64,000 nt of DNA from the NCBI GenBank assembly GCA_934086935.1, contig CAKOIQ010000002.1, positions 4,736 through 68,735 of the forward strand, written 5' to 3'. The stretch's first letter is position 1. Each line of letters opens with the position of its first letter. The notes beneath the pieces are model-generated. The model was not told the DNA's origin. It worked only from the letters and a program-made list of their open reading frames with translations, and made no database searches. This document shows, piece after piece, positions 19,940 through 57,867 of the stretch. This DNA is from an uncultured Bacilli bacterium (GTDB lineage: Bacteria > Bacillota_I > Bacilli_A > RF39 > UBA660). Both the position numbers and the translations under genes were made by a program.

Positions 19940-21265
19940 TTATTTTTTAAACATATTGTTTATTTTAGTTATTCCTCTTGAGGTTAAAATTTTATAGACA
20001 TAAGGTTCTTTTTTAGTTTTTATGTATTCTCCAATTTCTTCTCCTTTGTCTGTTAATCCTTTTTGAACAAATTCAAAGATTGGATTTAATTTAATCATGT
20101 CATTATCAAAACCTACTACTTCACTTATATTTGTGATTTTTCTTTTACCATCATGCATTCTTTCGATATTAATAACTAGATTAATGGCGTTTTCTATATA
20201 TTCTCTGATAGCATTAATTGGAATATCCATTCCACTCATTAAAACCATTGTTTCTAAACGATTTAGAGCATCTACTACTCCATTGGCATGTAAGGTAGTA
20301 AGAGAACCATCATGACCAGTATTCATAGCTTGTAGCATATCAAATGCTTCTTTACCACGACATTCACCAACAATGATACGATCTGGTCTCATACGAAGAG
20401 CATTGATTACTAAGTCTCTAATGGTAATAGCTGAATTGTTATTATAGTTTTCAGTTCTTGTTTCTAAACTAATAACATGTTCTTGTTCTAATTTTAATTC
20501 AGCTGCATCTTCAATTGTAATAATACGTTCATTATTACCAATAAAGCTACTTAAGATATTTAAAAGTGTGGTTTTACCAGAACCAGTACCTCCACAAACA
20601 ATAATATTTAGTTTGCCTTGGACAGCTGCTTCTAAAAATGTAGCCATCTCGGCAGTTAAGGTACCTACTCTAAGTAAATCATCAATACTTGTCATATTAC
20701 GTTTAAATTTACGAATGGTGATAACTGGTCCATTGACACTTAGTGGTGGGATAACTGCATTAATACGAGAACCATCAGCAAGTCTTGAATCAACCATAGG
20801 ATTAGATGAATCAATTGTTCTTCCAAGAGGTCCGATTAATCTTTGAATAGTTCTGATGATATGGTCATCATTAATAAATGAAACACTATTGTCTTTGACT
20901 AATTTACCATCAATTTCAACATAGATATCTTTAGGACCATTTACCATAATTTCAGTAATATTATTATCAGTTAAAAGTTCACTAATTGGACCTAGTCCAT
21001 TAATTTCATCATCAATTAAATTAAAGATATGACTTCTTTCAATGTTACTTAAATCATACCCTTCTAAGCATTCATCAATATTTTCATTAATGAATTCTTC
21101 CATGTCTCTTCCTTCAGGAACTTCTTTATCAATTAGATGTTCAATGATTTTCTTTCTTAACTCATCTAATAATTTTTTATCTGGAAAGACATCATAATCT
21201 GTAAGAGGTGTTTCTTTAATATTTTTATTTTGAAAGTTAAATATTTCTGTTAATGTTTTACTCAT
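19940..21265 (-). CDS. cpaF: Tad/Flp pilus assembly ATPase CpaF/TadA (VirB11-family)
   Basis: 441 aa with Walker [13 protein letters not shown], a Walker B/Asp box and His box (HANGVVDAL) typical of CpaF/TadA secretion ATPases. Confidence 0.8.
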
Positions 21266-31017: not shown

Positions 31018-33969
31018 TTAAGATTTAACAACAAATGTTAGACCAGATGGTGTTCCACTACTTGCAGCATTAAAATTATCTGCATCTGTTTGGGTACGTG
31101 CATATCCGGTTGTTGCTTTACTTCCAGAAAACATCTCTGACATGTCTTCTACTAAAGAAGTATTAAATGAACTTAAATCCAATGTTGTTGCGGCACTTTC
31201 ATAAAACATATATGACATATATATAACATTGCTTGTATCAAAACTACTTAAATCTAATGTTGTTGCTTTACTTCCATTAAACATCTCTGACATGTCTTCT
31301 ACTAAAGAAGTATTAAATGAACTTAAATCTAATGTTGTTGCTTTACTTCCAGAAAACATAGATGACATATCATTAACATTACTTGTATCAAAACTACTTA
31401 AATCTAATGAGGTTGCGGCACTAGAATTAAACATTCGTGTCATACTAGTTACTTTTGATGTATTAAATTGATTAAGTCCTTTGATTTCGGTTGCTGCATT
31501 ATAATCAAACATAGAACCCATATTTGTTACTTTTGAGGTATCAAAATTGCTTAAATCTAAACTTGTTGCGACACTATAAGAAAACATGTCTGACATATCA
31601 GCAACATTCGAAGTATTAAATTGATTAAGTCCTTTGATTTCTGTTGCGGCACTGTCAAAAAACATCCAGGACATATCGGTTACTTTTGAGGTATTGAAAT
31701 TACTTAAATCCAATGAGGTTGCTTTACTTCCAGTAAACATATGTGACATATCGGTTACTTTTGTGGTTTTAAGATTAGATAAATCTATGCTTTCTAATTT
31801 GGTATAATATCCAAACATGTATGATGCATTAGATCCAACTATTACTCCATTATCTTGACCAATGTAAAGTTCATATAAGCTATCATTATCTTCATCTAAG
31901 GTATATGCCATAATTGCTCCGTTGTGTTTTGCACCGGCATCCCAGGAAGCTATCGCATTACTTGGTACAATGTTTGTATTTTTAATAACAATCTTTTCTA
32001 CTTGATTTTTGGTTATTGGTCCATTAAATGCTTTTGATGTTGCTGCTTTTGCAGTATCTTGTGCAATTAATGTATCGTTTGCAATTATTATATATGGATT
32101 GCTGACTGTGCCATCTCCACCACTTATTATAGTGTCTGATTTTAAAGCAATAACTGGACGATATGCTACATTGTTGCTTGTTGAAATTGTTGGAGTAACA
32201 TAATTATTCTTTATTCCATAAACAGATGGAGTAGAATTTTTATAATCAGCTGGGGTTATTGTATAATATGCATAATTATTTGCTGCTGACGAATATAAAT
32301 AACTTTTGTTGTTACCAATATATGCTTTATCATAGCCAATTGATAATCCAGCAAATAAGGCTTCATCTGCTGTTAACATTCCAACCTTTGATTTTAGACC
32401 TGTTGTAACAGATGCGTTTCTATATGAAGGACTCGTTTCACTATAATTTCCAATTTGTGGAGTTGACGATACGACTAAACCTCCAGATGGACAACTATAT
32501 GTTGGGTTTGGTATGTTGTTGTTATAAGATTTATTAAATTTTTGAAGTCCTGAAAATGCAATGCTATTGACATTGTCATATAATGTTGGATTATAGTTTT
32601 TATTTCTGATTGAAGTATCATTACAATAAATTATATCTTCTAAATAGTCATTATAGTTTGATAGATTGTTTGTAGCCCAGGTGGACAAGACAGTTTCTGC
32701 ATTGCTTCCCTTAAAATCTGAAGTTGCAGCGGTTCCATAAGTTCCTGTTTGAACTGTACCGGAATTTTTTATAAATGGATTACTAGATGAACAACTTGAT
32801 CCATCCCCATTTTCTAATACTAATTTTATAGCTCCATTACCCATTACTCTGACAATTCTCCAACATTTGCCGGCAAATTGAACATAATTATTTTGAACAT
32901 TGCCTCTAAAATAGTATGAGACACTGTATTCGTCTGGTTCTGATGACATGATTGCTTCATCACTACTTAGTTCTGATGATTTAGTTTGATATGAATAATA
33001 CATATAATATGTTGAATTATCAGAACCTACTTGAACATCATTTACGTAGAATACGTCACCGTTTTCATTATCAAAGGATATGTATTTTCCTTTTAGTGTT
33101 CCTTGTAAATTAGTATTTGATAAAACTAATGACGTAGGATTGGATAAAGAATATGTTCCATTAACATTTTTAGTTCTGGAAGCACTGTAATAAATAGTTT
33201 TTCCAGCAATTGATGATAAATCTGCTTTATGCACAGTTCCATCATTTATAGTTGTTGATGCGACTACTGCTGATGGTTCTAATCCTGGAGTGGATACAGG
33301 AGTTTGTACCTTATTTGCTTTATTATTTCTTAGGGCGTAAAGTAACGTTCCATCTTCTGAACTATACCAATTGCTAGGTGCGGCAAAGTTGGCCTTACTC
33401 CATGTTACGATTGTACCAACTACAGCAAGGTTTGCTTCAAATTTTTGGTTAATCATTGTATTATCTGAAACTGCTATAATAATATTCATGCGATAGGTTT
33501 GAGTTCCGTTTGCTGGTAAAAAATCTGTATATACTCCAGACATTTGTAAACCGGTATCGGTAGTTATTGTAGGTGCAGATGATAATAATAGTGCGCGTTC
33601 TAAATTATATTCATTAACTCTGTTAACAGCTATTTGAATTTTATTCGTTGCTATGGTTGTCGTACTTTTATTTTGAACGCCAATATCAATTTTTATATCA
33701 CGTGAGCATTTATTTGTTACTTTAAAAGTATAATAGTCACCATCATTCCATAAGCTATTAAAATTAGTGCTACGATCTACACTTTTACTTATGACATGGT
33801 TATCACTTTCAAATTTAATTGTTGCACAATCTGTTGTTTTTAATAAATGTTCTTTGCTATCAGTTCCTGTAACAGAAAAATAGGCATATGAAGTACCTGC
33901 TAATAGAATAATGGCAAATAAAATGCTGCATAATAAAATAAGTTTATTTTTTAAGATAGCTTTTTCCAT
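31018..33969 (-). CDS. Large secreted DUF285-repeat surface protein with TasA/SipW-cognate-like signal peptide
   Basis: 983 aa. The N-terminus MEKAILKNKLILLCSILFAIILLAGTSYAYFSVTGTD resembles the TasA/camelysin-type signal. A long Ser/Thr/Asn-rich beta-rich region follows, then 11 or more tandem DUF285-type repeats (LDLSNFNTSKVTDMSWMF...). It ends with the conserved tail TGYARTQTDADNFNAASSGTPSGLTFVVKS. A hairpin terminator lies at about 30990-31015. Confidence 0.75.
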   Translation of the reverse strand: MEKAILKNKLILLCSILFAIILLAGTSYAYFSVTGTDSKEHLLKTTDCATIKFESDNHVISKSVDRSTNFNSLWNDGDYYTFKVTNKCSRDIKIDIGVQNKSTTTIATNKIQIAVNRVNEYNLERALLLSSAPTITTDTGLQMSGVYTDFLPANGTQTYRMNIIIAVSDNTMINQKFEANLAVVGTIVTWSKANFAAPSNWYSSEDGTLLYALRNNKANKVQTPVSTPGLEPSAVVASTTINDGTVHKADLSSIAGKTIYYSASRTKNVNGTYSLSNPTSLVLSNTNLQGTLKGKYISFDNENGDVFYVNDVQVGSDNSTYYMYYSYQTKSSELSSDEAIMSSEPDEYSVSYYFRGNVQNNYVQFAGKCWRIVRVMGNGAIKLVLENGDGSSCSSSNPFIKNSGTVQTGTYGTAATSDFKGSNAETVLSTWATNNLSNYNDYLEDIIYCNDTSIRNKNYNPTLYDNVNSIAFSGLQKFNKSYNNNIPNPTYSCPSGGLVVSSTPQIGNYSETSPSYRNASVTTGLKSKVGMLTADEALFAGLSIGYDKAYIGNNKSYLYSSAANNYAYYTITPADYKNSTPSVYGIKNNYVTPTISTSNNVAYRPVIALKSDTIISGGDGTVSNPYIIIANDTLIAQDTAKAATSKAFNGPITKNQVEKIVIKNTNIVPSNAIASWDAGAKHNGAIMAYTLDEDNDSLYELYIGQDNGVIVGSNASYMFGYYTKLESIDLSNLKTTKVTDMSHMFTGSKATSLDLSNFNTSKVTDMSWMFFDSAATEIKGLNQFNTSNVADMSDMFSYSVATSLDLSNFDTSKVTNMGSMFDYNAATEIKGLNQFNTSKVTSMTRMFNSSAATSLDLSSFDTSNVNDMSSMFSGSKATTLDLSSFNTSLVEDMSEMFNGSKATTLDLSSFDTSNVIYMSYMFYESAATTLDLSSFNTSLVEDMSEMFSGSKATTGYARTQTDADNFNAASSGTPSGLTFVVKS
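31100..31833 (-). repeat. Intragenic tandem DNA repeats encoding DUF285 units (about 141-nt / 47-aa double-unit period)
   Basis: For example, gacatgtcttctactaaagaagtattaaatgaacttaaat recurs at 31140 and 31281 (141-nt offset), and further degenerate copies extend through 31830. Confidence 0.7.
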
Positions 33970-35061: not shown

Positions 35062-35808
35062 TCAATTAATATTAGGAAATATATGTGTTTTTAGATATTT
35101 TTCTTCGGGAATATTATTAATAAAATTATATTTATTCTTATATAAACTATTGATATTATTAATATATTTTATTTTCTTATGTTTAACGTGATAAAGAGTT
35201 CTTTCAATTAAGAAATTATGATAAATATAATTAGTATTTTTAATATTTTCAATAATTTTAATTAATAAATAAATTATTATTATAATTATACTTAAGTTAT
35301 TAAAATTAGTTAGGATTAAAATTATTAAAGAAATAATACTTATTAGATTTATGAGTTTAATAGTAGTCAAATATTTAAATAGGCATTCTACTCCACTTTT
35401 AAGTATTTTAGAACCATCTAAAGATACAATTGGGATTAAATTGAATATCATAATTAATTTATTATAGTAATTAAAAATATTAATACTAATTTCATTAATT
35501 AAACCGTATGTATGAAGATAATTCATTATAAATGATAATATTAACTGAAATAAAATACCAGCAATACTTATAATAAATATTTTGTAACTTGCGGTGTTTA
35601 ATTTTAAATCAGAATTAATAATACTTCCAAAAGGAAGTATAATGATGTTATTTATTTTAATTTTAAATAATTTTAAGAAAAAAATGTGACCTAAATCATG
35701 AATAATTAAAATTAAACTTATAATCAATAAATAGTTAAAATAACCACATAATAAAATACTTAATAATAATAGATAAGTAGTTATATTAATTTTAAATATA
35801 TTCTTCAT
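35062..35808 (-). CDS. spoIVFB: Stage IV sporulation protein FB (site-2 zinc metalloprotease that processes pro-sigma-K)
   Basis: Polytopic membrane protein with HDLGH (HExxH variant) and NLIPIVSLDGSKIL (LDG motif) typical of S2P/SpoIVFB. It sits in the conserved spoIVFA-spoIVFB-rplU position. Confidence 0.65.
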   Translation of the reverse strand: MKNIFKINITTYLLLLSILLCGYFNYLLIISLILIIHDLGHIFFLKLFKIKINNIIILPFGSIINSDLKLNTASYKIFIISIAGILFQLILSFIMNYLHTYGLINEISINIFNYYNKLIMIFNLIPIVSLDGSKILKSGVECLFKYLTTIKLINLISIISLIILILTNFNNLSIIIIIIYLLIKIIENIKNTNYIYHNFLIERTLYHVKHKKIKYINNINSLYKNKYNFINNIPEEKYLKTHIFPNIN

Positions 35809-36319
35809 AATTTAAGAATTTTCCATCTTTCATAAATAAAACATATAATTTATTATCTTTGGCAGTTGCTATAATATTATCTGATTCAATATAATCATAT
35901 ATTTTTACATTAATATTTTCAACGTTTGAATACCAATAATCAATACCATCCATACCTTGAATAATAATTGTTTTACCATAATCTTCTTTTTCACCAACAA
36001 AGACAACTATTCCGCTTTTAAAAGGATATACTGTATTAATATTATTTATAACAGCACCATCTTTGTAAGTATTATAATCAGTATAATTAGTGTTATGGTT
36101 AGCGTTGATTATTTTTTCATCAGCAGGTAATACTTTACCAAAATATTTATTATAAATTTTAGTTATTTTACTAAAATTAAAACTTTTATCATAAATATTA
36201 TTTTTAAATAATAATAAGTTTTTATCACTATAATTAACAAATATTGAAGTTATTAAAAATAATATTATACATATTAATACTTTAATTAAAAATGATTTAA
36301 TATATCTTTTTTCTTTCAT
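35792..36319 (-). CDS. spoIVFA: Stage IV sporulation protein FA-like (membrane-anchored degenerate LytM/M23 domain)
   Basis: 175 aa with an N-terminal TM and a C-terminal M23-like beta-rich region (GIVVFVGEKEDYGKTIIIQGMDGIDYWYSNVENINVK). It overlaps the spoIVFB start, with synteny as in B. subtilis. Confidence 0.5.
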   Translation of the reverse strand: MKEKRYIKSFLIKVLICIILFLITSIFVNYSDKNLLLFKNNIYDKSFNFSKITKIYNKYFGKVLPADEKIINANHNTNYTDYNTYKDGAVINNINTVYPFKSGIVVFVGEKEDYGKTIIIQGMDGIDYWYSNVENINVKIYDYIESDNIIATAKDNKLYVLFMKDGKFLNYEEYI

Positions 36320-42524: not shown

Positions 42525-43307
42525 CTATAAATGTAAGCTCTTTCCTTTATATGTTTTAGCTTTATTAATAAATCCTCTTAATCTTGGTAAGATAACAACT
42601 TCATATTGCATTTGGTATAAACTATTTGATGGTACAATTTGAGGTTCTTCTAAATCATAGCCATGTAATGCATAAATAACTTCTTTTTCATCATCAGTTA
42701 AATGGGAAATTCCTTCCAAGATTTCTTTTTTGCTATATTCGCTTAATGTGTTATAGATTGATTCGATTTTAGTTTCTTTGTCTGCATGTGGTGAAAATAA
42801 TTTATTGGCTTTATCTTCTTCAATAGTTGTTTCAATATAGTTTGTCATATTAAATAATGCAGTTCTAATAACTCTTTCAGGTGTATCTAATAAAGTAGAT
42901 ATTTCTTCAATACTATAACTTTTACCATAATATAACATAAAATAATTTTTATTTTGAGTGCCAAAATATGTTAATATATCAAAAATTCTTTTAGCAATTT
43001 GATTTTTTATAAATTCTGGTTCGTCTTTATATAATGAACCAAATTTAATAGTAAAACGTGAATAAACATTTACAACAACAGCTTTATAGATAAATTCAAT
43101 TTCTTCCATAGCAGTTGCAACATTTACAATCTCATCAAATTTACATTCTAAGTTATGTTCTACAGCAGCGATGGCAAATAATGTTTTTCCATCTAATGTT
43201 CTTAAAATGCCATTTTTAATTTTTTCACCTTTTTCGGCATCTAAATAAACCACACTAATTACTTTATTATATACTTTTGATTCAGGTTTCTTAATTGTAT
43301 TTCCCAT
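42525..43307 (-). CDS. Hypothetical protein with degenerate sigma-70 region-4-like HTH and a C-terminal r4-helix-like motif (LTDDEKEVIYALHGYDLEEP)
   Basis: 260 aa. The middle segment FMLYYGKSYSIEEISTLLDTPERVIRTALFNMTNYI resembles the sigma r4 HTH. The C-terminal motif is shared with the proteins at 43313, 49220 and 51207. Confidence 0.45.
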   Translation of the reverse strand: MGNTIKKPESKVYNKVISVVYLDAEKGEKIKNGILRTLDGKTLFAIAAVEHNLECKFDEIVNVATAMEEIEFIYKAVVVNVYSRFTIKFGSLYKDEPEFIKNQIAKRIFDILTYFGTQNKNYFMLYYGKSYSIEEISTLLDTPERVIRTALFNMTNYIETTIEEDKANKLFSPHADKETKIESIYNTLSEYSKKEILEGISHLTDDEKEVIYALHGYDLEEPQIVPSNSLYQMQYEVVILPRLRGFINKAKTYKGKSLHL

Positions 43308-43312
43308 AATAA

Positions 43313-44071
43313 TTATTTCTCGATTCTTTCTATTTTTTTAGTTTTAATGGTTGTTAAATCATTTTTAGCTAAAATTGCAGATAATTTAGGTTCAATTATT
43401 AATTCATATGTCATACCTGTTAATGATTTATTAGCATCTGATGTAAAGATATCACCATCATATGAACTGTATATAATTTCTCTATCTTCTCTAGATAATA
43501 AACCCATAGCATTTAGTATTGCTGAAGGTGAATAAGTTTTTCCTAAACCTTCTTTAAAACTAATATGTTCATATTTTTTACTGTTATTATAATCTCTTTC
43601 TAATTCTAATTCGCCTAAACGGTATTTAATAAAGACAATTATATCATTTATATTTGATGATAAAGTTGGAATGTCTGTTTGGAATATTTTAAGTAAATCT
43701 TCTAGTGATACATCAGTTAAATATAATGTAATTAATCTAATATCTTCAAGTGGTAATGAATTTATAATAATTTTTAAATCTTTAAGTGCTTGTGATTGAA
43801 CACGACATGATTTCCCTTTAAAATACTCTGGAAAAGTACTGTATAAAATAGCAACACTTTTTTCATCTGTTAAAATTGTAACTAAATCTAAGAAATCATT
43901 TAAAGCTTTTTTTAATAGTTTTTCGATTTCTTCACTTGAATTAGCATTATGAATAGCGACATCTAAAGCAAATCTTTCTTCAGATGGTAAAATGCTTTTA
44001 ATTTGTTCAAATTCTTCAGAAGTTAATGAACCTGAGAATTCTAATAATTTTTCTTTATTTAATTTTTCCAT
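43313..44071 (-). CDS. Hypothetical protein, paralogous architecture to 42525-43307 (r4-like segment plus C-terminal LSREDREIIYSSYDGDIF motif)
   Basis: 252 aa with LITLYLTDVSLEDLLKIFQTDIPTL (r4-like) and the C-terminal motif. It has its own promoter at 44103-44130. Confidence 0.45.
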   Translation of the reverse strand: MEKLNKEKLLEFSGSLTSEEFEQIKSILPSEERFALDVAIHNANSSEEIEKLLKKALNDFLDLVTILTDEKSVAILYSTFPEYFKGKSCRVQSQALKDLKIIINSLPLEDIRLITLYLTDVSLEDLLKIFQTDIPTLSSNINDIIVFIKYRLGELELERDYNNSKKYEHISFKEGLGKTYSPSAILNAMGLLSREDREIIYSSYDGDIFTSDANKSLTGMTYELIIEPKLSAILAKNDLTTIKTKKIERIEK

Positions 44072-44133: not shown

Positions 44134-46215
44134 TTACTGAATTTTCTTAGAGAAACTGCCTTGGTTAGGAGACATTATTGTTTTAGAGAATGCTTCTATT
44201 TTATTTTTTAATTCTTCAAAACGTGATTCCATGTCTGGATGTTTGGCAATTTCATGAAGATTTATTTCAAGTTCTTGTCCAGATTTATTCCTAATAATTA
44301 ATTTATCAATAATTTTAGCATAAATAATTGAAGCATAATCTTCTAATACTTCTTGATATTCGGTTCCAATAAAATCTTGATAATGTAATATTCTATCTAA
44401 TAAAATCGATTCTTCAAAATCATTTATAACTAATTTTTTTATTTTTAATCGACATAAACCAAATTCAAGTTCTTCCACTGAAGCGGGGATAATAAGTGTT
44501 TCTATAAAAACTTCAAGACGATTGCGCCATGAATATTTTTGAGCAACATCTATTTTTATTTTTTTAATACCAGATTGAAATTCTAATTTTCTTAAATCTA
44601 AATCAGTAGGATCGATTCCGGTTGAAACTAGTCTAATTTCAAAGTTTTTTAGAGATGGAGGCATTAAAACATTTTTATTTAAAAATCGAAGAACATCTAT
44701 AAATACTTCGGAAATTGGTTTTAATTTTGAGAATTGTGAACCTATTTCAATTTTGGGACTTGTTTTGACCCAATCGTAGTATGTATAAACATAATTTTGA
44801 GATATAGAAGTAAAACCATCTGGGAATTCATAAACATTGGAATTATTTTTAGAAGTGAACATTTCATAGATATTACTTAAATTACTTAGTTTTTTTACAC
44901 CTAACCCATTGCTTTTTAGAAAATCCATAAGAGTACTATAGGGTTGTATATCATTTAATATTCTTATATATGTAGATAATGGTATTGTTTCTGATAAGAC
45001 GGCATCAGGTAGAAAACAATTTGCCAAATTAGCGTTACAAAATTTAGTTGAAAAGAATTCATTTAATCCATCTTTGTTATCTAATGATAATAATAATTTT
45101 CTTTTAATTTTATCAGATAAGATATGGATATAATCAAACTTACTATTTTCATCTCTTAAATAGTCACTAATAGCATTTATTAATCGAGTACATTTTAGTT
45201 CTTGTGAATTTGTATAGTACTCTCCAAGATAAGTTTTAATAAAAGGGCTCTCACCTTTTATTAAATTGTTTAATTTTTCCATAATAATTTTTTCATATAC
45301 TTCTTGTTCATTTTGATAAAGATTATTTTTGTTAAAATAATTATCTTGAACTGATTGACTATCTATAACCTCATCATCCCTACTTAATAATACCTTAAGT
45401 TTTACATTATATAATTCTTGTATTTCTCTTTTAGAAATTAAATTTCTTCCAAATAAATAAAATAACATAAATCTATTTTCTAAATTTATTATATTTGAGT
45501 ATTGTTTAGATAAGTCTTTACTTGCCTTTAAATCTTGAAGTTGTTTTCTAATTTCATTAATCTCATCTTTGTGATGATAAACATATTTTTCTAAATACAT
45601 TTCAGATATTATCATTTCAGTTGTATATCCTGAAGTTGAAGACTTAGAATAAACTTTTCTTAAGTATTTTTTTCTATCTAAATATGCTTTTTGTTCTTCA
45701 TTAGCTAAAGTTAGAACATGTTCATTTGATTTAAAATTTTTTATTTCTCTTTCTAGTGCACCTAATTGATTTTTTAAAGTTATTAAGGAAAGTTGGATTG
45801 CATTCATGGCATTAATAATGGCATTTTTCTTTTTTAAGGATAAGAATGGTTTTTCTTTTTTGATTTCATCTAAAGCTACTAATCTTATAATTAATGTTTT
45901 GTAAATGCTTCTTATTTCTTCTAAGTATAGTTTTAACTTAGTGACAACATAATCAAATTGATTAGATATTTCTAAGTTATTTAATAGTAATTCTGTATAC
46001 ATGAATACTTCCTCGTGCATATTTCCATTGTCTAACTCTTTGCTTAATCTAATATTATCTTTAAGAAGTTCTTCGTATTCAGATTTAGTTTTATTAAGAA
46101 ATCTAATATCACTAATATGCTCTCTTTGAGGAATGGGAAAAAGATTGGATATATCTACTAATCCAATTTGATTATTCTTTTTAAAAATAGTTTTAAAGTG
46201 TTTAAATATTTCCAT
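44134..46215 (-). CDS. Large cytoplasmic protein of unknown function (693 aa)
   Basis: Long clean ORF with no TM, no Walker motifs and no recognisable catalytic signatures. It is predicted helical with coiled-coil stretches. Confidence 0.45.
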   Translation of the reverse strand: MEIFKHFKTIFKKNNQIGLVDISNLFPIPQREHISDIRFLNKTKSEYEELLKDNIRLSKELDNGNMHEEVFMYTELLLNNLEISNQFDYVVTKLKLYLEEIRSIYKTLIIRLVALDEIKKEKPFLSLKKKNAIINAMNAIQLSLITLKNQLGALEREIKNFKSNEHVLTLANEEQKAYLDRKKYLRKVYSKSSTSGYTTEMIISEMYLEKYVYHHKDEINEIRKQLQDLKASKDLSKQYSNIINLENRFMLFYLFGRNLISKREIQELYNVKLKVLLSRDDEVIDSQSVQDNYFNKNNLYQNEQEVYEKIIMEKLNNLIKGESPFIKTYLGEYYTNSQELKCTRLINAISDYLRDENSKFDYIHILSDKIKRKLLLSLDNKDGLNEFFSTKFCNANLANCFLPDAVLSETIPLSTYIRILNDIQPYSTLMDFLKSNGLGVKKLSNLSNIYEMFTSKNNSNVYEFPDGFTSISQNYVYTYYDWVKTSPKIEIGSQFSKLKPISEVFIDVLRFLNKNVLMPPSLKNFEIRLVSTGIDPTDLDLRKLEFQSGIKKIKIDVAQKYSWRNRLEVFIETLIIPASVEELEFGLCRLKIKKLVINDFEESILLDRILHYQDFIGTEYQEVLEDYASIIYAKIIDKLIIRNKSGQELEINLHEIAKHPDMESRFEELKNKIEAFSKTIMSPNQGSFSKKIQ

Positions 46216-47942: not shown

Positions 47943-48308
47943 TTATGATTTTACTACAAATGTTAGACCAGATGATTTATTACTACTTGCATTAAATTTA
48001 TCTGCATCTGTTTGTGTACGTGCATATCCGGTTGTTGCACTAATATTTTGAAACATATTTGACATATTTGTTACCATAATTGAATATGATGCCGCAGCAT
48101 TTCCAGTATTTTTTACTGTAAATGTTTTGGAATCACTCCATCCTGGATAGATAGTTGCTCCTATAATTTGCTTTGAACCATCAGTATATGTTACCTCTAG
48201 ATTACCTGCTCTACTTATGATACTACTACCTTCATCTCCATTATCAATTACTGCTGTATAAAATGCATAACTTATACCAATAAAAGCAATTAATAAAAAA
48301 ACTATCAA
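47943..48308 (-). CDS. Short secreted TasA-like protein; internally deleted paralog of the DUF285 surface protein (signal + TasA-like start + one partial DUF285 unit + conserved tail)
   Basis: MIVFLLIAFIGISYAFYTAVIDNGDEGSSIISRAGNLEVTYTDGS...ATIYPGWSDSKTFTVKNTGNAAASYSIMVTNMSNMFQNISATTGYARTQTDADKFNASSNKSSGLTFVVKS. Its 3' ~100 nt are near-identical to 31018-31115. It lies 3 nt downstream of murB, and a terminator hairpin sits at 47916-47942. Confidence 0.6.
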   Translation of the reverse strand: MIVFLLIAFIGISYAFYTAVIDNGDEGSSIISRAGNLEVTYTDGSKQIIGATIYPGWSDSKTFTVKNTGNAAASYSIMVTNMSNMFQNISATTGYARTQTDADKFNASSNKSSGLTFVVKS

Positions 48309-49174: not shown

Positions 49175-49219
49175 AGCATCACCTAAGTTAATTATATTCT
49201 ATTTAAAGAAAAAAAGCAT

Positions 49220-51217
49220 CTATTTAATGCTTTTTGCTTGTCTTTGTTTAATTTTAGGAATTACTTTCTTAAATTCTGCTATAAATGGAACTATTAATTC
49301 TTTATTATCAAATATTTTAACTAATTCTTCTTGAGTATAATTTGATGAAGTAAATCTTTCATTACCATTTAAGACTTTTAGAGCTATACTAAATAATAAT
49401 TCGGGTCCAATTTTAGGATTTAATTTAGAAAAAGAAGGAAGGCCGACTAAATCAATTGGATCAATATCTTTTTTGGTATATACTTTTTCTTCTGGTTTTT
49501 GGAAAGATAAAGATTGAACTCTTATATATGGAATTAAATACATTTGTAAATATTGTTTTTCACATATTGATAATAAACCTAGATGATGTTCACATAGATT
49601 GGTTCCATATGCTTTAATTAATAATTCTTTATCTTCACTTGGTAAACATGTTTCAAATACTTTAAGGATGTTTTCTCTAGGTATATTTGGTAATAAAGTA
49701 AATAAATTTTGTTTTGAATCTGATGAAGTTTGTGAGTCAGTTCCTTTATCTTTTCTTAAAATTAAAGGCAGTGATTTAAAAATTAAATTTGATAGACGAT
49801 GTTGATCTTGATTATTTATTGGGATTTCTTTACGACGATATAAATCTTCATCATAATATCTAGTAATAAGATTTTGATTAGTTTTATCTAAAGTACTGAT
49901 TGCATATTTTAGATCAATTGGTGAATAACCTGGGAAGAATTTAGTTAATCTTACTCGGCAAATTTCTTTATGAGTATTATTTAATTTAACTTCATCTAAA
50001 ATGCCACTATTAGCATTATTTAATGATTTTATAACAGGGTCATTTCTTAATACTTTAAGAGCTTTAGATTCTTCTTGTCTAATTCTTTCACGAGTTACAT
50101 TAAACATTTTACCTATTTCATCTAAAGTTTTCTTTTCTTCACCTAAAAGACCAAAACGATAAATAATTATCTTGATTTGTCGTTCTGTAAGTTTAGAACC
50201 ATATATTGCTTTTACAATAGCGTCACTAAAATCTTTTTTAATAAAATCTTCTTCAATTTTAGTATCTTGATCAGGAATAAAATCTTCTAAGGATGCGTCT
50301 GGTTCTTCTAGTCTTATTGGAGAATTAATACTAATTTCTGGACGAATAATAGAAAAGGCATCTTCAATTTTTGATACTGAATAATCAGTTAATTCAGATA
50401 ATTCTTCAATGGTTGGTTCTTTACCAGTTTCATCATGAATACGTTTAGCAGTAGCGCTTACTTTGTATTTCATAGATTTAATATAATCTGGATATCTTAT
50501 TGTTGTTGATGAATAATTAATGAATCTTTTTATAGATTGTTTTATCCACCAAGTAGCATATGTTGAAAATCTATAACCTTTACTTACATCAAATTTTTCA
50601 ATGGCTCTAATTAAACCAAATACTCCTTCTTGAGTTAAATCATTCATAGTAATGGTTGAAGATATTAAACGATATTTTTTAGCAATTGAGATTACTAATC
50701 TTAAATTATGTTTAATTAAAATGTCTGTTGATTCTTGATCTCCATTTTGGGATTTAATAATAAGACTTCTAGTTTCCGCTGGAGTTAATAATCGATATTT
50801 TCTTGTTTCATTTAAAAACATAGATTGTGATGGTCCAACATAGTCTTCATTAATAGTAATCTTATTATCATCTAATTCTAATTTGTTAATATCAATATCT
50901 TTTTTATCACAGAAAACTTCAATTATTTCACAGGTAATTTCATCTGGTACTAAAGATTCCAGACTACTTTCTTGAATAAATCCTAAATATTTATTTAAAA
51001 TAGATTTGATTAAATCATTAACTACTTCATTAGATAATAATAATTCATCAATTTTTTCATAAGTTACATTATCTTCGTTATTATCACATAATTTAAAGAA
51101 ATAGTTAGAAATACGTAGTAATGATTTTATATTTTCATTTGGTTTATCACTAATTCTAATTTTTTCTTCTATATATGCTTTTATTAATTGTTTTTTCTCT
51201 TCCATATTATTTTTCAT
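49220..51217 (-). CDS. Sigma-70 family RNA polymerase sigma factor (group 1/2-like regions 1.2-4) with ~265-aa C-terminal extension
   Basis: 665 aa. Region 1.2 is [16 protein letters not shown], region 2 is [18 protein letters not shown]...[37 protein letters not shown], region 3 is present, and region 4 is [49 protein letters not shown] ending near residue 400. The C-terminal extension holds two further r4-helix-like motifs. A terminator hairpin lies at 49188-49217. Confidence 0.8.
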
Positions 51218-52826
51218 CCTTTCTATCTACTGGCTTAAGTACCATTTCTTTTGGTTTTTTAGATAACGAATTAAATTCATTTATGGTTTGAGTAACGATA
51301 TAATTGATTTCCTCATCAGTTAAATTAAATTGAGAAAATAGTTTTTTATAAATATAATCACTTGTTTCAGTAACACCTAGTTTAATAGCAGTAATTATTT
51401 GTTCATCGATGGTTTGATTTGTAAGAGGTAAACTAGTTTGTCTTTGTTTTCTTAATTGTCTTCCTATTTTAGGATAAATAATATTTTTAATTTCAATTAA
51501 AGATTCACTTGGTAATGTAACTAGTAAAGGATTTTCTAAATCATAATTATGAAAAGCATATACTAGTTCTTTTTCACGTTCTGATAATAATGATAAAGCA
51601 TAATTTATTTCATCTTTAGTAAAGAATTCAAATGTTGTATAGATTGATTGAGGAAGAGTTACTCGGCGAATTTTAGTTAATTCTTCTAAGGATATTTTAC
51701 CTTCATTGTATTTTATTATATTTCTTTTTAGGCGTTTAATTACGGTTGTTATTCGTTGCTCTTCTTCATCTGAAAGAACATGATATTCTTTTAATGAAGA
51801 CCCATATTTTTTAAAGATAAGTTGTTTATCTAACTCTGAATAACTTTCAATTATACGTTTTAATAAATCTTGAGATATTTCTGGTAGTCTTTCATTTAAG
51901 GTTTTATTTTTTAATTTTCTTTCGAAGTGACCTCTTGTAATATTTGATCGCATTAAATGAAGAATACAAACTATTCTATCTTCAGATTGAGAATCAATCT
52001 TATGGGCTTCAGTTAAATCGGCTCCAAATTTTCTAGTTATTAGATTTTTATCTTTTTCTGTTAAAGATGCTATGTAAGTAATTATTTGTTCTGGAGTATA
52101 TTCGGGCATTCTTTCAAAAATGTTTTTTATTTTAGAACCAGATACTGCTAATTTTGGTGTACTTGATTTAGTTTGATATTTAGGAGTTGGGCTTTTTTCT
52201 TTTTCTGTTATAATTGGTAATTTGATGGGATTAATTGGATCTGTAATGGTACTTTGTAATTTATTTAAACGATTAATGATTAAGCTTTTATAACTGGTTA
52301 CTAAAGTTAATATGTGATTAATATTAATATTTAATCTTCTAGCAATAATATCTTCAGGAAGATTTTTTCCATAAAAACCAAAGCGTAATTTTAAGATTTC
52401 TTTTGTTCTTGAATCAGCAGATAATTCAAATTGATCAATGATATATCTTTTTATTTGTGGGTAGACTCTTTCGTCAATACTTAAAGTAAATTCATTTATG
52501 ACATTATTGGCAAAAGTTTCTGATTTACTACCTAATGCGGGTTGAGGATTTTTGGTTAAATAATTTTTTATTTTGTTATATATACAAGAAACAGCTGTCT
52601 CATAAAAGTTTTGGTTTTGGTAAGAAGTTATTGCTTCATTTAAACCGGTAAGGCCTAAACTGAATAGTAATTCATAAGAATATGGTGTTTCTTTGAATTT
52701 TCCTTCTATTATCTTTTCTATTAATTCATAGTTATGTTTAATCAAGATATCTTTTGCTTGCTTATCACCGTTTTTAAAACGTTGTAATAGTTCCTGTGTT
52801 TCACTCACACTTAAAATCTTTGCCAT
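51207..52826 (-). CDS. Degenerate sigma-70 paralog ('pseudo-sigma'): region-2-like N-terminus lacking the aromatic melting residues, one r4-like HTH and three r4-helix-like repeats
   Basis: The likely start is MAKILSV at 52826 (RBS GGAGGGG); the ORF-track start at 52877 is upstream of the promoter. The N-terminus aligns with its neighbour's r1.2/r2 (NGD..DILIKHN; [15 protein letters not shown] vs [14 protein letters not shown]; [17 protein letters not shown] vs [17 protein letters not shown]). It also carries [26 protein letters not shown], then [18 protein letters not shown] and VYAFHNYDL repeats. It overlaps the sigma gene by 11 nt. Confidence 0.6.
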
Positions 52827-52848
52827 AAACCCCTCCGTTTTGGTGCCT

Positions 52849-52877
52849 ATAATACACCAAAATAGCGAAAATTGCAA
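52849..52877 (-). promoter_or_regulatory. Sigma-A-type promoter (-35 TTGCAA, 17-bp spacer, -10 TATTAT) for the pseudo-sigma/sigma operon
   Basis: Minus-strand reading is TTGCAAttttcgctattttggtgTATTATagg, about 22 nt upstream of the RBS. Confidence 0.5.
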
Positions 52878-52911
52878 GAAAAAACTACTAATCTAATGAG
52901 TTAGTAGTTTT
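52875..52911 (-). terminator. Rho-independent terminator of valS (11-bp stem aaaactactaa/ttagtagtttt enclosing the stop codon, then UUUUUUCUU)
   Basis: Perfect inverted repeat immediately followed by a T-run on the minus strand, overlapping the -35 of the next promoter. Confidence 0.65.
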
Positions 52912-56164: not shown

Positions 56165-56430
56165 TTTTTAAATAAAAAAAGTTATAAATTAAAGGACGAC
56201 TTATGGCCGTGGTACCACCTTAATTTATAACTTATTAGTTATCTTTATATATTTAACGCATATAAACGATTTTTCTCATTTTGCAACCTTCATATAATTA
56301 TATTATTAACTTACACCAAATGTTAACTCTCTATAAATATAAGTTATATTACTCCTCAAAATTCATTGAAAACTATAATTATTATAAAGGATTTTTTTAG
56401 ATATTTCAAGATAAGTTTTTTTTAATATTT
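56165..56430 (-). promoter_or_regulatory. Putative T-box riboswitch leader (tRNA-Val-responsive) preceding the HD-domain gene-valS operon
   Basis: The minus strand contains AATTAAGGTGGTACCACGGCC, matching the T-box consensus AANNNGGGUGGNACCGCG. It is enclosed by a perfect 12-bp inverted repeat GTTATAAATTAA...TTAATTTATAAC followed by UUUUUUUAUU (terminator), then RBS GGAG and the ATG of the HD gene. The upstream region is about 250 nt, as expected for Stem I. Confidence 0.5.
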
Positions 56431-56514: not shown

Positions 56515-57867
56515 ATGGATGTTAAACCTGTGATTCCAAGCATAAATGAAGTATCCTTTGATGCAAAGCAATTAACTACATCAAATGCTAACCTTGTCTC
56601 TTTTAATTATGAAGATACTCCTATTACGGATATTGTTAATACAATTATTTTAGATGCAATTAAAAATAAGGCTTCAGATATTCACTTTGACCCTTCTGAT
56701 GATGGTTTAAGGATAAGAATGCGTATTGATGGTAAATTATCTGATTATAGTCATGTTCCTTTATATGTTCAAAAGAATATGATTACTCGTATTAAGATTA
56801 TTTCTGGTATGAATATTACAGAATCAAGAATTCCTCAAGATGGTGCTATTAAGAATAGTTTAGATAATATTGATGTTGATTTACGTGTTTCTTGTTTACC
56901 TACTAATTTAGGGGAAAAAGTTGTTATTCGTGTTTTAGATTATAAGATGTCTTCAGCCGGTATTGAAGAATTGGATTTTAGTAAAGAAAATTTAGCTAAA
57001 GTTAATAAAATGATTAGTTTACCTAATGGTATTATATTAGTTACTGGTGCAACTGGTACAGGTAAATCAACAACTGTATACTCTATTTTACAAAAGTTAA
57101 ATACAGAAGATAGAAATATTATTACCGTAGAAGATCCGATAGAAATGAATATTGATGGTATTAATCAAGTTCAGGTTATTCCAGAAATTGGACTTACTTT
57201 TGCGAGTGCTTTAAGAAGTATTTTACGTCAGGACCCGGATATTGTAATGATCGGAGAAATTCGTGATGATGAAACAGCACGTATTGCAGTTAGAGCTTCT
57301 ATTACTGGTCACTTAGTATTATCTACAATCCATACTAATGACTCTTTAAGTACAATTGAACGTTTAACGGATATGGAAGTTGAAAGATATTTATTAGGTG
57401 CAGCTTTATCTGGTATTATTTCCCAGAAATTAGCTAGAAGATTATGTAAGAAATGTCGAGTTGTTAGACCTACTACTGATTATGAAAAGAAAGTGTTTAA
57501 ACAAGCTTTAAATATGGACGTTAATGAAATATATGAACCTAAGGGTTGTGATGCTTGTCATCAAGGTTATAGTGGTCGTATTGCTATTCATGAGGTTTTA
57601 CTTATTAATCAAGAGATTAAAGATGCGATTGTTAGAAATGATGACAAAGCTAAACTTAGACATTTAGTATACTCTTCTGGTACAACAACAATGCTTCAAG
57701 ATGGTTTAAATAAAGTTGTTAGTGGTGAAACTTCTTTTGAAGAAATTATTAAACTTATTGATTTAGAAGATGATTTGGGTACAAATACTAATTTAGGTTT
57801 AAAAGAAACTTTAAATAATAGTAAAGTTGTTAATAGTAACAGCAATATTGAAACTTTAGATATATAA
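56515..57867 (+). CDS. Type IV pilus / T2SS assembly ATPase (PilB/GspE/ComGA family)
   Basis: 450 aa with Walker A GATGTGKSTT, Asp/His boxes and a tetracysteine motif (CKKCR...CDACHQ) typical of PilB/GspE. It is the only long plus-strand gene in its neighbourhood. Confidence 0.8.
   Translation: MDVKPVIPSINEVSFDAKQLTTSNANLVSFNYEDTPITDIVNTIILDAIKNKASDIHFDPSDDGLRIRMRIDGKLSDYSHVPLYVQKNMITRIKIISGMNITESRIPQDGAIKNSLDNIDVDLRVSCLPTNLGEKVVIRVLDYKMSSAGIEELDFSKENLAKVNKMISLPNGIILVTGATGTGKSTTVYSILQKLNTEDRNIITVEDPIEMNIDGINQVQVIPEIGLTFASALRSILRQDPDIVMIGEIRDDETARIAVRASITGHLVLSTIHTNDSLSTIERLTDMEVERYLLGAALSGIISQKLARRLCKKCRVVRPTTDYEKKVFKQALNMDVNEIYEPKGCDACHQGYSGRIAIHEVLLINQEIKDAIVRNDDKAKLRHLVYSSGTTTMLQDGLNKVVSGETSFEEIIKLIDLEDDLGTNTNLGLKETLNNSKVVNSNSNIETLDI

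Follow-up and report, generated by a model that had tools for sequence, protein, structure and literature searches.

Variable sigma-factor genes carrying arrays of sigma4-like modules between valS and murB in an uncultured Bacilli bacterium

Organization of the sigma-factor locus

The DNA analysed here (hereafter the window) is a stretch of 64,000 nucleotides (nt) from an uncultured Bacilli bacterium (contig CAKOIQ010000002.1 of assembly GCA_934086935.1, positions 4,736 to 68,735), in which two neighbouring genes, here called U (upstream) and D (downstream), encode sigma-like proteins that end in arrays of a sigma4-like module of about 75 amino acids (aa). The window is AT-rich chromosomal DNA (about 26% GC), and its genes include mutS, a PBP gene, gyrA/parC, xseA, ftsW/rodA, radC, mreC, murB, valS and proS. 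U and D both lie on the minus strand between valS and murB (Table 1), and in this respect the original prediction, which described a tightly coupled and co-oriented sigma pair among housekeeping genes, was right. It also described an 11-nt overlap of the two genes, which exists for the 665-aa form of D; however, independent gene callers, in several assemblies, start D at the second ATG (position 51205), giving a protein of 661 aa and a 1-nt gap to U. Whichever start of D applies, the two genes are tightly coupled.

The expression signals proposed for the pair were partly recovered. The promoter-like element TTGCAA-17-TATTAT is present upstream of U and matches at 9 of 12 positions, but such matches are no commoner in the window than in shuffled sequence (52 observed versus 58.9 expected), and because shuffling yields them as often, the element is kept as a candidate promoter only. 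At the other end, a hairpin (AAAAGCAT / ATGCTTTT) followed by a T-run overlaps the D stop codon and is probably the terminator of the U-D unit, and an AT-rich hairpin with a T-run (AAACTACTAA / TTAGTAGTTT), enclosing the valS stop codon, is probably the terminator of the unit formed by a T-box leader, an HD-domain gene and valS. Both hairpins can be read by eye, but the terminator scanner, which needs at least three G-C pairs, reports neither, both being too GC-poor.

Conservation of the pair, which had been proposed as a check, was found in relatives and in other lineages. We give practically no weight to the explanation that the pair results from faulty assembly or binning, or consists of decaying pseudogenes. 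All data do come from metagenome assemblies, but the same U-D-murB order is found in several independent assemblies (ENA and Logan) as well as in relatives, so an artefact of assembly can be dismissed; the reading frames are intact, many columns in every domain are invariant across five allele groups, and the ratio of nonsynonymous to synonymous substitution rates (dN/dS) is not clearly above 1.

Table 1 Features of the locus and of neighbouring genes in the window, with amino acid identities of the window proteins to those of relatives L001 and L006 (HMM, hidden Markov model; HTH, helix-turn-helix).
Feature	Position	Strand	Description	Identity
Gene U	51207..52826	(-)	539-aa sigma-like protein; ATG behind GGAGG; sigma2-like part, sigma4-like HTH, three modules, terminal sigma4-like domain	40-41%
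U residues 3-95	52542..52820	(-)	Degenerate sigma region 1.2/2, SigE/SigK type; relatives read FTSYASECIIANI	
U residues ~125-195	52242..52454	(-)	Sigma region-4-like HTH, conserved across the U family	
U module 1	51918..52133	(-)	Residues 232-303; module HMM; AlphaFold2 model of this copy, pLDDT 89.9	
U module 2	51696..51911	(-)	Residues 306-377; module HMM	
U module 3	51432..51650	(-)	Residues 393-465; module HMM	
U terminal domain	51237..51419	(-)	Residues ~470-530; sigma4-like HTH, degenerate in the window allele; terminal-domain alignment	
Gene D	49220..51217	(-)	RpoD-like sigma with C-terminal module array; 665 aa, or 661 aa from ATG 51205	52-53% (sigma core 55-58%)
D residues 1-130	50828..51217	(-)	Acidic (isoelectric point 4.5) helical N-terminal domain at the position of sigma region 1.1	
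D residues 131-400	50018..50827	(-)	Sigma regions 1.2, 2, 3 and 4; -10 and -35 motifs	
D module 1	49736..49954	(-)	Residues 422-494; module HMM	
D module 2	49487..49714	(-)	Residues 502-577; module HMM	
D terminal domain	49238..49462	(-)	Residues ~586-660; helical; pLDDT 77-83 in the full-length model	
Candidate promoter	52849..52877	(-)	TTGCAA-17-TATTAT upstream of U	
Probable U-D terminator	49208..49234	(-)	Hairpin and T-run at the D stop codon	
Probable valS terminator	52882..52910	(-)	Hairpin and T-run at the valS stop codon	
252-aa protein	43313..44071	(-)	Sigma4-like HTH region and one C-terminal module	50-56%
260-aa protein	42525..43307	(-)	Sigma region-4-like HTH (residues 90-164) and one C-terminal module; phrog_1190, 7e-7	50-56%
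T-box leader	56189-56375	(-)	Upstream of HD-domain gene and valS; 96.7 bits	
ValS				96%
HD protein				91%
ProS				89%
MurB				86-88%
HTH membrane protein				81%

The repeated sigma4-like module

The short motif noted in the original prediction is the core of a helical module of about 75 aa, and a module HMM confirmed the two extra copies claimed for D and the three claimed for U. Each copy was detected at E 1e-27 to 1e-31, far beyond chance, and the module is also found in unrelated lineages. Filtering 564 strong copies for redundancy left 441, whose consensus reads K.KTIYEYF..YSKEEID.AI..L..EEKELL.LRYGEDL.NP....L..EE...FY..I.PKIKKLL.NP. Positions 11-46 of the module align with RpoD regions 3.2/4.1 (hhalign 80%, E 1.4e-5), and a comparison with PDB sequences gave weak matches to region 4 of FliA/SigF. 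The AlphaFold2 (AF2) model of the module, built on 68 copies, is confident (predicted local distance difference test, pLDDT, 89.9) and shows helices at positions 14-23, 26-36 and 48-67, with a loop in place of the first HTH helix of sigma4; a Foldseek search with this model against PDB and BFVD returned nothing significant. Each array closes with one more sigma4-like HTH domain (consensus KTP.FNQLM..LTPKEAIIISLRLGYVDGKYFSTEAIA.FLGIEEEEVR), which is more complete than the modules and aligns with RpoD region 4 (hhalign 95.7%, E 8e-9). Based on these alignments and the model, the modules appear to be domains descended from sigma region 4 that have kept the region 4.1 helix pair and the long last helix and have lost the HTH positioning helix. 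The predicted likeness to region 4 is therefore upheld, but the repeats are not the first helix of region 4 alone: whole domains of about 75 aa are followed by a complete HTH.

Neither the module nor the C-terminal extension has a family in Pfam, NCBIfam, PHROGs or PADLOC, and the architecture, which the original prediction did not recognise, is described by no curated family. Matches to PF24905 (TTC3) in some relatives lie below threshold and were discarded as spurious. Slipped-strand variation of copy number was likewise rejected, since the modules of the window share no long DNA repeats. The genes of the 252-aa and 260-aa proteins, each of which bears one module, are adjacent to each other, adjoin proS and lie 5-7 kb from U-D, and their position is conserved in relatives.

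D is an RpoD-like sigma factor with a C-terminal array

The downstream protein had been predicted to be a complete RpoD-like sigma factor with a long C-terminal extension, and this was confirmed. Pfam finds Sigma70_r2 (7e-19), r3 (1e-9) and r4 (9e-15), all within residues 167-392, and residues 47-394 align to the RpoD profile from region 1.2 through the end of region 4. The -10 motif (YATWWIKQ) and the -35 motif (VTRERIRQ) are kept and are invariant across the D family, and D reads as an intact sigma of the RpoD type, in which the motifs for promoter and core binding are conserved. The alignment to the RpoD profile includes region 1.2, for which Pfam r1_2 gives no significant match (a relative reaches E 0.0085), and the N-terminal 130 aa match no Pfam family, PF03979 (region 1.1) included. 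The terminal helical domain of D lies outside our alignment of terminal domains, and by our own reading of its motifs it would be the counterpart of the sigma4-like domain that ends the arrays elsewhere in the family. An AF2 model of full-length D was of low quality (pLDDT 58, predicted template modelling score 0.30) and was left out of the fold search.

In spite of these matches, D falls far below all RpoD and RpoS equivalog cut-offs in NCBIfam, with 220.7 bits against a cut-off of 354 for TIGR02393, 216.4 against 572 for PRK09210 and 215.4 against 555 for PRK05658. The similarity to MzaA of the MZA anti-phage system is also far below its cut-off (210 versus 800 bits) and covers the sigma core alone; in PADLOC, too, only the sigma core of D resembles MzaA, and no Mza component was matched by any of five neighbouring proteins.

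In the D family, a short peptide repeat, SQSVEGYVGE / SQTVENYVGD, lies in the linker that precedes region 1.2 (alignment columns 120-160, residues ~119-129 in the window). Some alleles (P0004 and P0032) have one to three duplications of it, which appear as a 30-nt indel in the DNA comparison.

U is a diverged relative of group-3 sigma factors

The profile matches and motifs of U mark it as a diverged relative of sigma factors, group-3-like and degenerate in the window allele. The HMM check that had been proposed for its sigma homology gave a divided result. In Pfam, U has a region 4 match alone (residues 156-189, 6e-4), which is below the gathering score, but NCBIfam matches its N-terminal 190 residues to SigK (5e-14), SigE (4e-10) and SigF/G (about 1e-9), and hhalign aligns its N-terminus with RpoD (92%, E 5e-7). 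U also matches the phage sigma phrog_351 at 4e-9, and together these matches agree with the earlier view of U as a degenerate sigma relative carrying the repeats of D. Regions 2 and 4 (PF04542 and PF04545), taken as the mark of sigma-70 membership, are thus both present in D and weakly present in U, where region 2 is seen by NCBIfam and profile-profile comparison alone. The NCBIfam scores of U are below the cut-offs for SigK (52 versus 252 bits), SigE (39.6 versus 339) and the SigI family (21-23 versus 244-319), and U has no N-terminal pro-sequence, beginning directly at region 1.2/2.1.

The original prediction went further and regarded U as clearly derived from the same sigma as D and, with its aromatic -10-melting residues replaced, as catalytically dead. 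The closest relative of U outside its own family (phmmer) is the 383-aa sigma, with regions 2 and 4, encoded upstream of a 950-aa module-sigma at locus L008, and this relative is closer to U than D is. It reads SLGSLGLIKAIDTYD..KGTEFSTYATRCIDNEILMFIRK and SQPYVSRLINRI (motifs ATYA..CI.NEILM and SQ.YVSRL), and relatives of U retain SLGLTGL...FTSYASECIIANINDFL and KEILKLRYGF. The motifs of the U family and of the L008 protein (SLG.LGL...ATYA..CI.NEI and SQ.YVSRL) are ones that we take to be typical of SigE/SigK-type sigmas. Since its sigma2/sigma4 part is SigE/SigK-like and nearer to the L008 protein than to D, U does not look like a dead copy of D, and a clear derivation from the same sigma is not supported. 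The replacement of the aromatic residues holds for the window allele, from which the region 2.3 motif (T/S)YA is missing, but relatives keep FTSYASECI and LKLRYGF, so that the loss is allele-specific. Group-3 sigmas lack the WW dyad in any case, so that the term "dead" is not supported, and sigma factors are not catalytic.

The related explanation that U is a dead duplicate of D, acting as a decoy, as a competitor or as one part of a split sigma with D, seems unlikely to us. In its favour, U and D have C-terminal modules in common, their genes are tightly coupled, and the window strain has lost the region 2.3 motif. Upstream/downstream sigma pairs also recur elsewhere, and at locus L005 the upstream member is a full RpoD paralogue (612 aa, with an N-terminal hydrophobic segment and three modules), followed by a canonical RpoD of 1,060 aa that carries five modules and a terminal HTH. 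Against a dead duplicate stand the SigE/SigK-like character of U, the intact motifs of its relatives and, as described below, the independent recombination of U and D alleles. Moreover, nothing is split between the two proteins, because each has its own sigma2 and sigma4.

The upstream sigma of L005 (754-2592) begins with KVKVFVAILIVIGGIATLF, which resembles a membrane anchor, and in region 2.3 it reads YADPWIKE, not YATWWIRQ.

Allelic divergence and recombination

The most unusual property of this cassette is its allelic hypervariability. As shown in Table 1, D, U and the two small module proteins are much less similar between the window and its relatives than the surrounding proteins are, and dN/dS is 0.39-0.58 for the four module genes versus 0.06-0.16 for the neighbours. 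For these comparisons, diversity was measured by direct pairwise identities; counts of clusters at 90% identity were rejected as a measure, because a ValS control listed near-identical sequences as separate clusters.

The divergence is also found within a species. The valS DNA of L001, L004 and L006 is about 98-99% identical, for which reason we read them as one species; within it, D is 70-74% identical, with synonymous divergence (dS) of 0.56-0.76 versus 0.04-0.22 in the flanks. In sliding comparisons, nucleotide identity is 96-100% in the flanks, falls to 64-80% exactly inside D (L001 versus L004) or inside U and D (L001 versus L006) and is back to 98% at murB, with breakpoints at gene borders. 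This sharp fall at gene borders between near-identical flanks indicates allelic replacement by recombination. In addition, U is 94.7% identical between L001 and L004 where D is 70% identical, and because these strains share a near-identical U and a divergent D, U and D must be exchanged independently. The cassette thus persists as old alleles that have diverged deeply and are exchanged by homologous recombination in a conserved backbone, and this pattern is compatible with balancing or conflict-driven selection. At 80% identity, the D family forms five allele groups. Along D, sliding dN/dS is highest in region 3 and the modules and lowest in regions 2 and 4.2. Sister clades, with ValS 83-86% identical, have no sigma pair after valS.

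Distribution of module-sigmas in other lineages

A profile search of 1.84 billion representative proteins found the module in at least 1,200 protein clusters at E≤1e-3 (599 at E≤1e-10 and 150 at E≤1e-30). Among the best 150 module proteins, 50 have an RpoD-like core, usually at residues ~130-470 and followed by 2-14 modules; the rest reach up to 1,899 aa and 20 matched stretches. All matches come from metagenomes or metagenome-assembled genomes (MAGs), with "Bacilli bacterium" as the single named organism, and a GTDB genome scan with the C-terminal extension matched one MAG. The same module is borne by different sigma classes and by small HTH proteins. Apart from the paired loci described above, other lineages carry a single module-sigma. 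Linkage of dnaG and rpoD is typical of Bacillota. The original prediction saw no such context at the locus, and this extends more widely: dnaG adjoins no module-sigma in eight lineages (the window clade and seven others), and the flanking genes differ each time.

In a few of the best 150 proteins (among them P0168, P0178, P0195, P0199 and P0280) the order is reversed, and the RpoD-like core follows the array at the C-terminus; an upstream-type and a downstream-type gene may have fused here, or the gene calls may be read-through. Genes of the Abi_2 family (L009 11505-12440 and L011 1502-2446) lie two to three genes from a module-sigma in two unrelated lineages, and lexA directly adjoins a module-sigma on the opposite strand in L010 and L012.

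One explanation for such arrays is that they are sigma4-mimic decoys which titrate or sense phage take-over proteins (compare T4 AsiA and phage G1 gp67) and diversify in an arms race. It would suit the retention of region 4.1-like helices and of the last helix together with the loss of the DNA-reading helix, the highly variable copy number of the modules, the exchange of deeply divergent alleles by recombination and the Abi_2 genes near module-sigmas in two other lineages. We nevertheless consider it improbable. Apart from the MzaA similarity in the sigma core, no link to a phage or defence family was found; in tblastn, three modules matched none of 50,697 phage records, and neither a pattern scan of IMG/VR contigs for the module nor a search of viral structures (BFVD) gave a match. 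Furthermore, dN/dS is not clearly above 1, and modules are also found on small proteins that are not sigma factors.

Other features of the window

The T-box leader upstream of the HD-domain gene is preceded by a near-consensus promoter (TTGAAA-17-TATAAT at 56409-56381), from which we conclude that canonical SigA-type promoters are used in the source organism. Between the gene of the HTH membrane protein and the two small module genes lies a 693-aa open reading frame (44134-46215, minus strand) with no match in Pfam, PHROG or PADLOC; it looks like a strain-specific insertion, because L001 and L006 have no gene of similar size there. A 983-aa protein (31018-33969, minus strand) contains four DUF285 ("Mycoplasma" BspA-like) repeats, and the local GC content rises to 0.32, versus about 0.26 elsewhere. 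A possible type IV pilus or competence apparatus is suggested by two secretion ATPases of the T2SSE type (19940-21265 and 56515-57867) and by a 121-aa protein, encoded directly after murB (47943-48308), whose N-terminal segment is hydrophobic and pilin-like. The genes that follow closely downstream of radC and mreC (35062-36319, minus strand) encode proteins of the Peptidase_M23 (175 aa) and Peptidase_M50 (248 aa) families. Their order resembles that of spoIVFA-spoIVFB in B. subtilis, whose product processes pro-SigK; the pair is a curious one beside the SigE/SigK-like U, which itself has no pro-sequence.

Discussion

In this study, sigma-70 factors with an array of sigma4-like repeats were found that have not been described before in Pfam, NCBIfam, PHROGs, PADLOC or the literature searched, where we found no account of sigma factors with tandem sigma4-like domains. 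We read the locus as a polymorphic sigma-factor cassette rather than a conventional housekeeping rpoD, and, taken as a whole, we give this reading about an even chance. Within it, D is less likely to be a typical primary sigma than an accessory RpoD-like one that diversifies, as we infer from its sub-threshold scores, its lack of dnaG linkage and its hypervariability.

A competing explanation, possible but clearly less probable, is that D is the sole primary sigma (the SigA orthologue) of a small-genome, fast-evolving member of the Bacilli, that its array is a lineage-specific embellishment like the sigma70 non-conserved region, and that U is an ordinary alternative sigma. Several observations would suit it. 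D has an acidic N-terminal domain, regions 1.2, 2, 3 and 4 and the canonical -10/-35 residues, it lies among housekeeping genes with a synteny conserved in its clade, the genome, to judge from contigs of 1.1-1.16 Mb, may be small and have few sigmas, and no other sigma was found within the window. Moreover, the module-sigmas of other lineages reach 310-406 bits against the RpoD profile. However, D is far under every RpoD equivalog cut-off, and dnaG is never adjacent. The core of D is 55-58% identical to that of L001 and L006 where ValS is 96% identical, D alleles of a single species are as divergent as described above, and the gene-wide dN/dS of D is 0.2-0.5; to our knowledge, such divergence is unlike that of any known primary sigma.

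Three points weigh against the cassette reading. First, the same U allele occurs with two D alleles that are 70% identical, which argues against a tightly co-evolving interface between U and D. Second, positive selection was sought by sliding dN/dS and no segment was clearly above 1, so that relaxed constraint together with recombination could explain the divergence without positive selection. Third, D has an acidic N-terminal domain together with what appears to be the full set of group-1 regions.

If the locus is such a cassette, the following mechanism can be proposed. D would direct RNA polymerase to ordinary promoters of the TTGACA/TATAAT type, as expected from its intact core-binding, -10 recognition and -35 recognition motifs, and U may either mimic a sigma or serve as an alternative one. 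All four proteins, the two small sigma4-HTH proteins included, would share a clade-specific C-terminal chain that is capped by a complete sigma4-like HTH. With the HTH positioning helix lost and the region 4.1-like helices kept, the modules would dock proteins rather than read -35 DNA, using the groove that in a genuine sigma4 receives the beta-flap tip, anti-sigmas and activators. In this way, the modules would tether all these sigma-type proteins to one partner, possibly RNA polymerase, a regulator or each other.

We also offer, tentatively and with considerable doubt, a wider proposal. The arrays may be a new sigma appendage that mimics the docking surface of sigma4 and either soaks up or senses phage sigma4-binding proteins or defines strain-specific interaction groups, and U, D and both small module proteins may together form a conflict locus kept polymorphic by balancing selection. 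If this is true, a sigma factor that is hypervariable and swaps its alleles would be known for the first time from a bacterial core chromosome.

Few bacterial proteins are as well studied or as conserved as sigma factors. The module family adds to them a large set, spread over at least 1,200 clusters, of RpoD-like and group-3-like sigmas with 2-20 extra domains that appear to derive from sigma4, and it points to an unexplored wiring of sigma factors to their partners in uncultured gut Bacilli. Sigma alleles that are about 70% identical in one species contradict the view of RpoD-like sigmas as slow-evolving, and they raise the question of what selects for diversity in a promoter-recognition subunit.

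Comparison with known systems

Beyond sigma-70 membership, the cassette shows no clear defining feature of the nearest known kinds. D resembles group 1/2 sigma-70 factors (RpoD/SigA and RpoS-like) in regions 2, 3 and 4, in YATWWIKQ and RERIRQ and apparently in region 1.2 and its acidic N-terminal domain, but it differs from them in the 265-aa array, the low equivalog scores, the lack of dnaG linkage and the extreme allelic divergence. Similarly, the U family and the L008 protein share the sigma2/sigma4 motif patterns of the SigE/SigK group-3 sigmas of Bacillota, whereas U lacks a pro-sequence, scores 52 versus 252 bits, carries modules and a terminal sigma4-like domain and has a degenerate region 2.3/2.4. 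YlxM/UPF0122 proteins differ from the module in being single-domain and in keeping the HTH, and they have no sequence relationship to it. In the SigO-RsoA type, the functions of regions 2 and 4 are split between two small proteins, whereas U and D each hold their own sigma2-like and sigma4-like parts.

The pherotype cassettes comQXP, comCD and agr are polymorphic specificity loci that encode signal/receptor pairs. They are like the U-D cassette in having divergent alleles in a conserved backbone and recombination breakpoints at the cassette borders, but they do not encode sigma factors, and no signalling component is seen at U-D.

Extra C-terminal parts are also known on extracytoplasmic function (ECF) sigmas such as ECF41, where they are thought to modulate the sigma's own activity (PMC4598750). 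These are single non-sigma-like domains on group-4 sigmas, whereas here a repeat array apparently derived from sigma4 is found on group-1-like and group-3-like sigmas. In PhyR-type sigma mimics, domains like sigma2 and sigma4 serve as a protein decoy (PMC4598750). Unlike these, U and D have no receiver domain in Pfam or NCBIfam and no known NepR-type partner, and their sigma4-like domains are repeated and fused to a sigma that appears functional. Nevertheless, if sigma-derived domains are reused for protein binding in both cases, PhyR-type mimics may be the closest precedent for the modules and perhaps for U.

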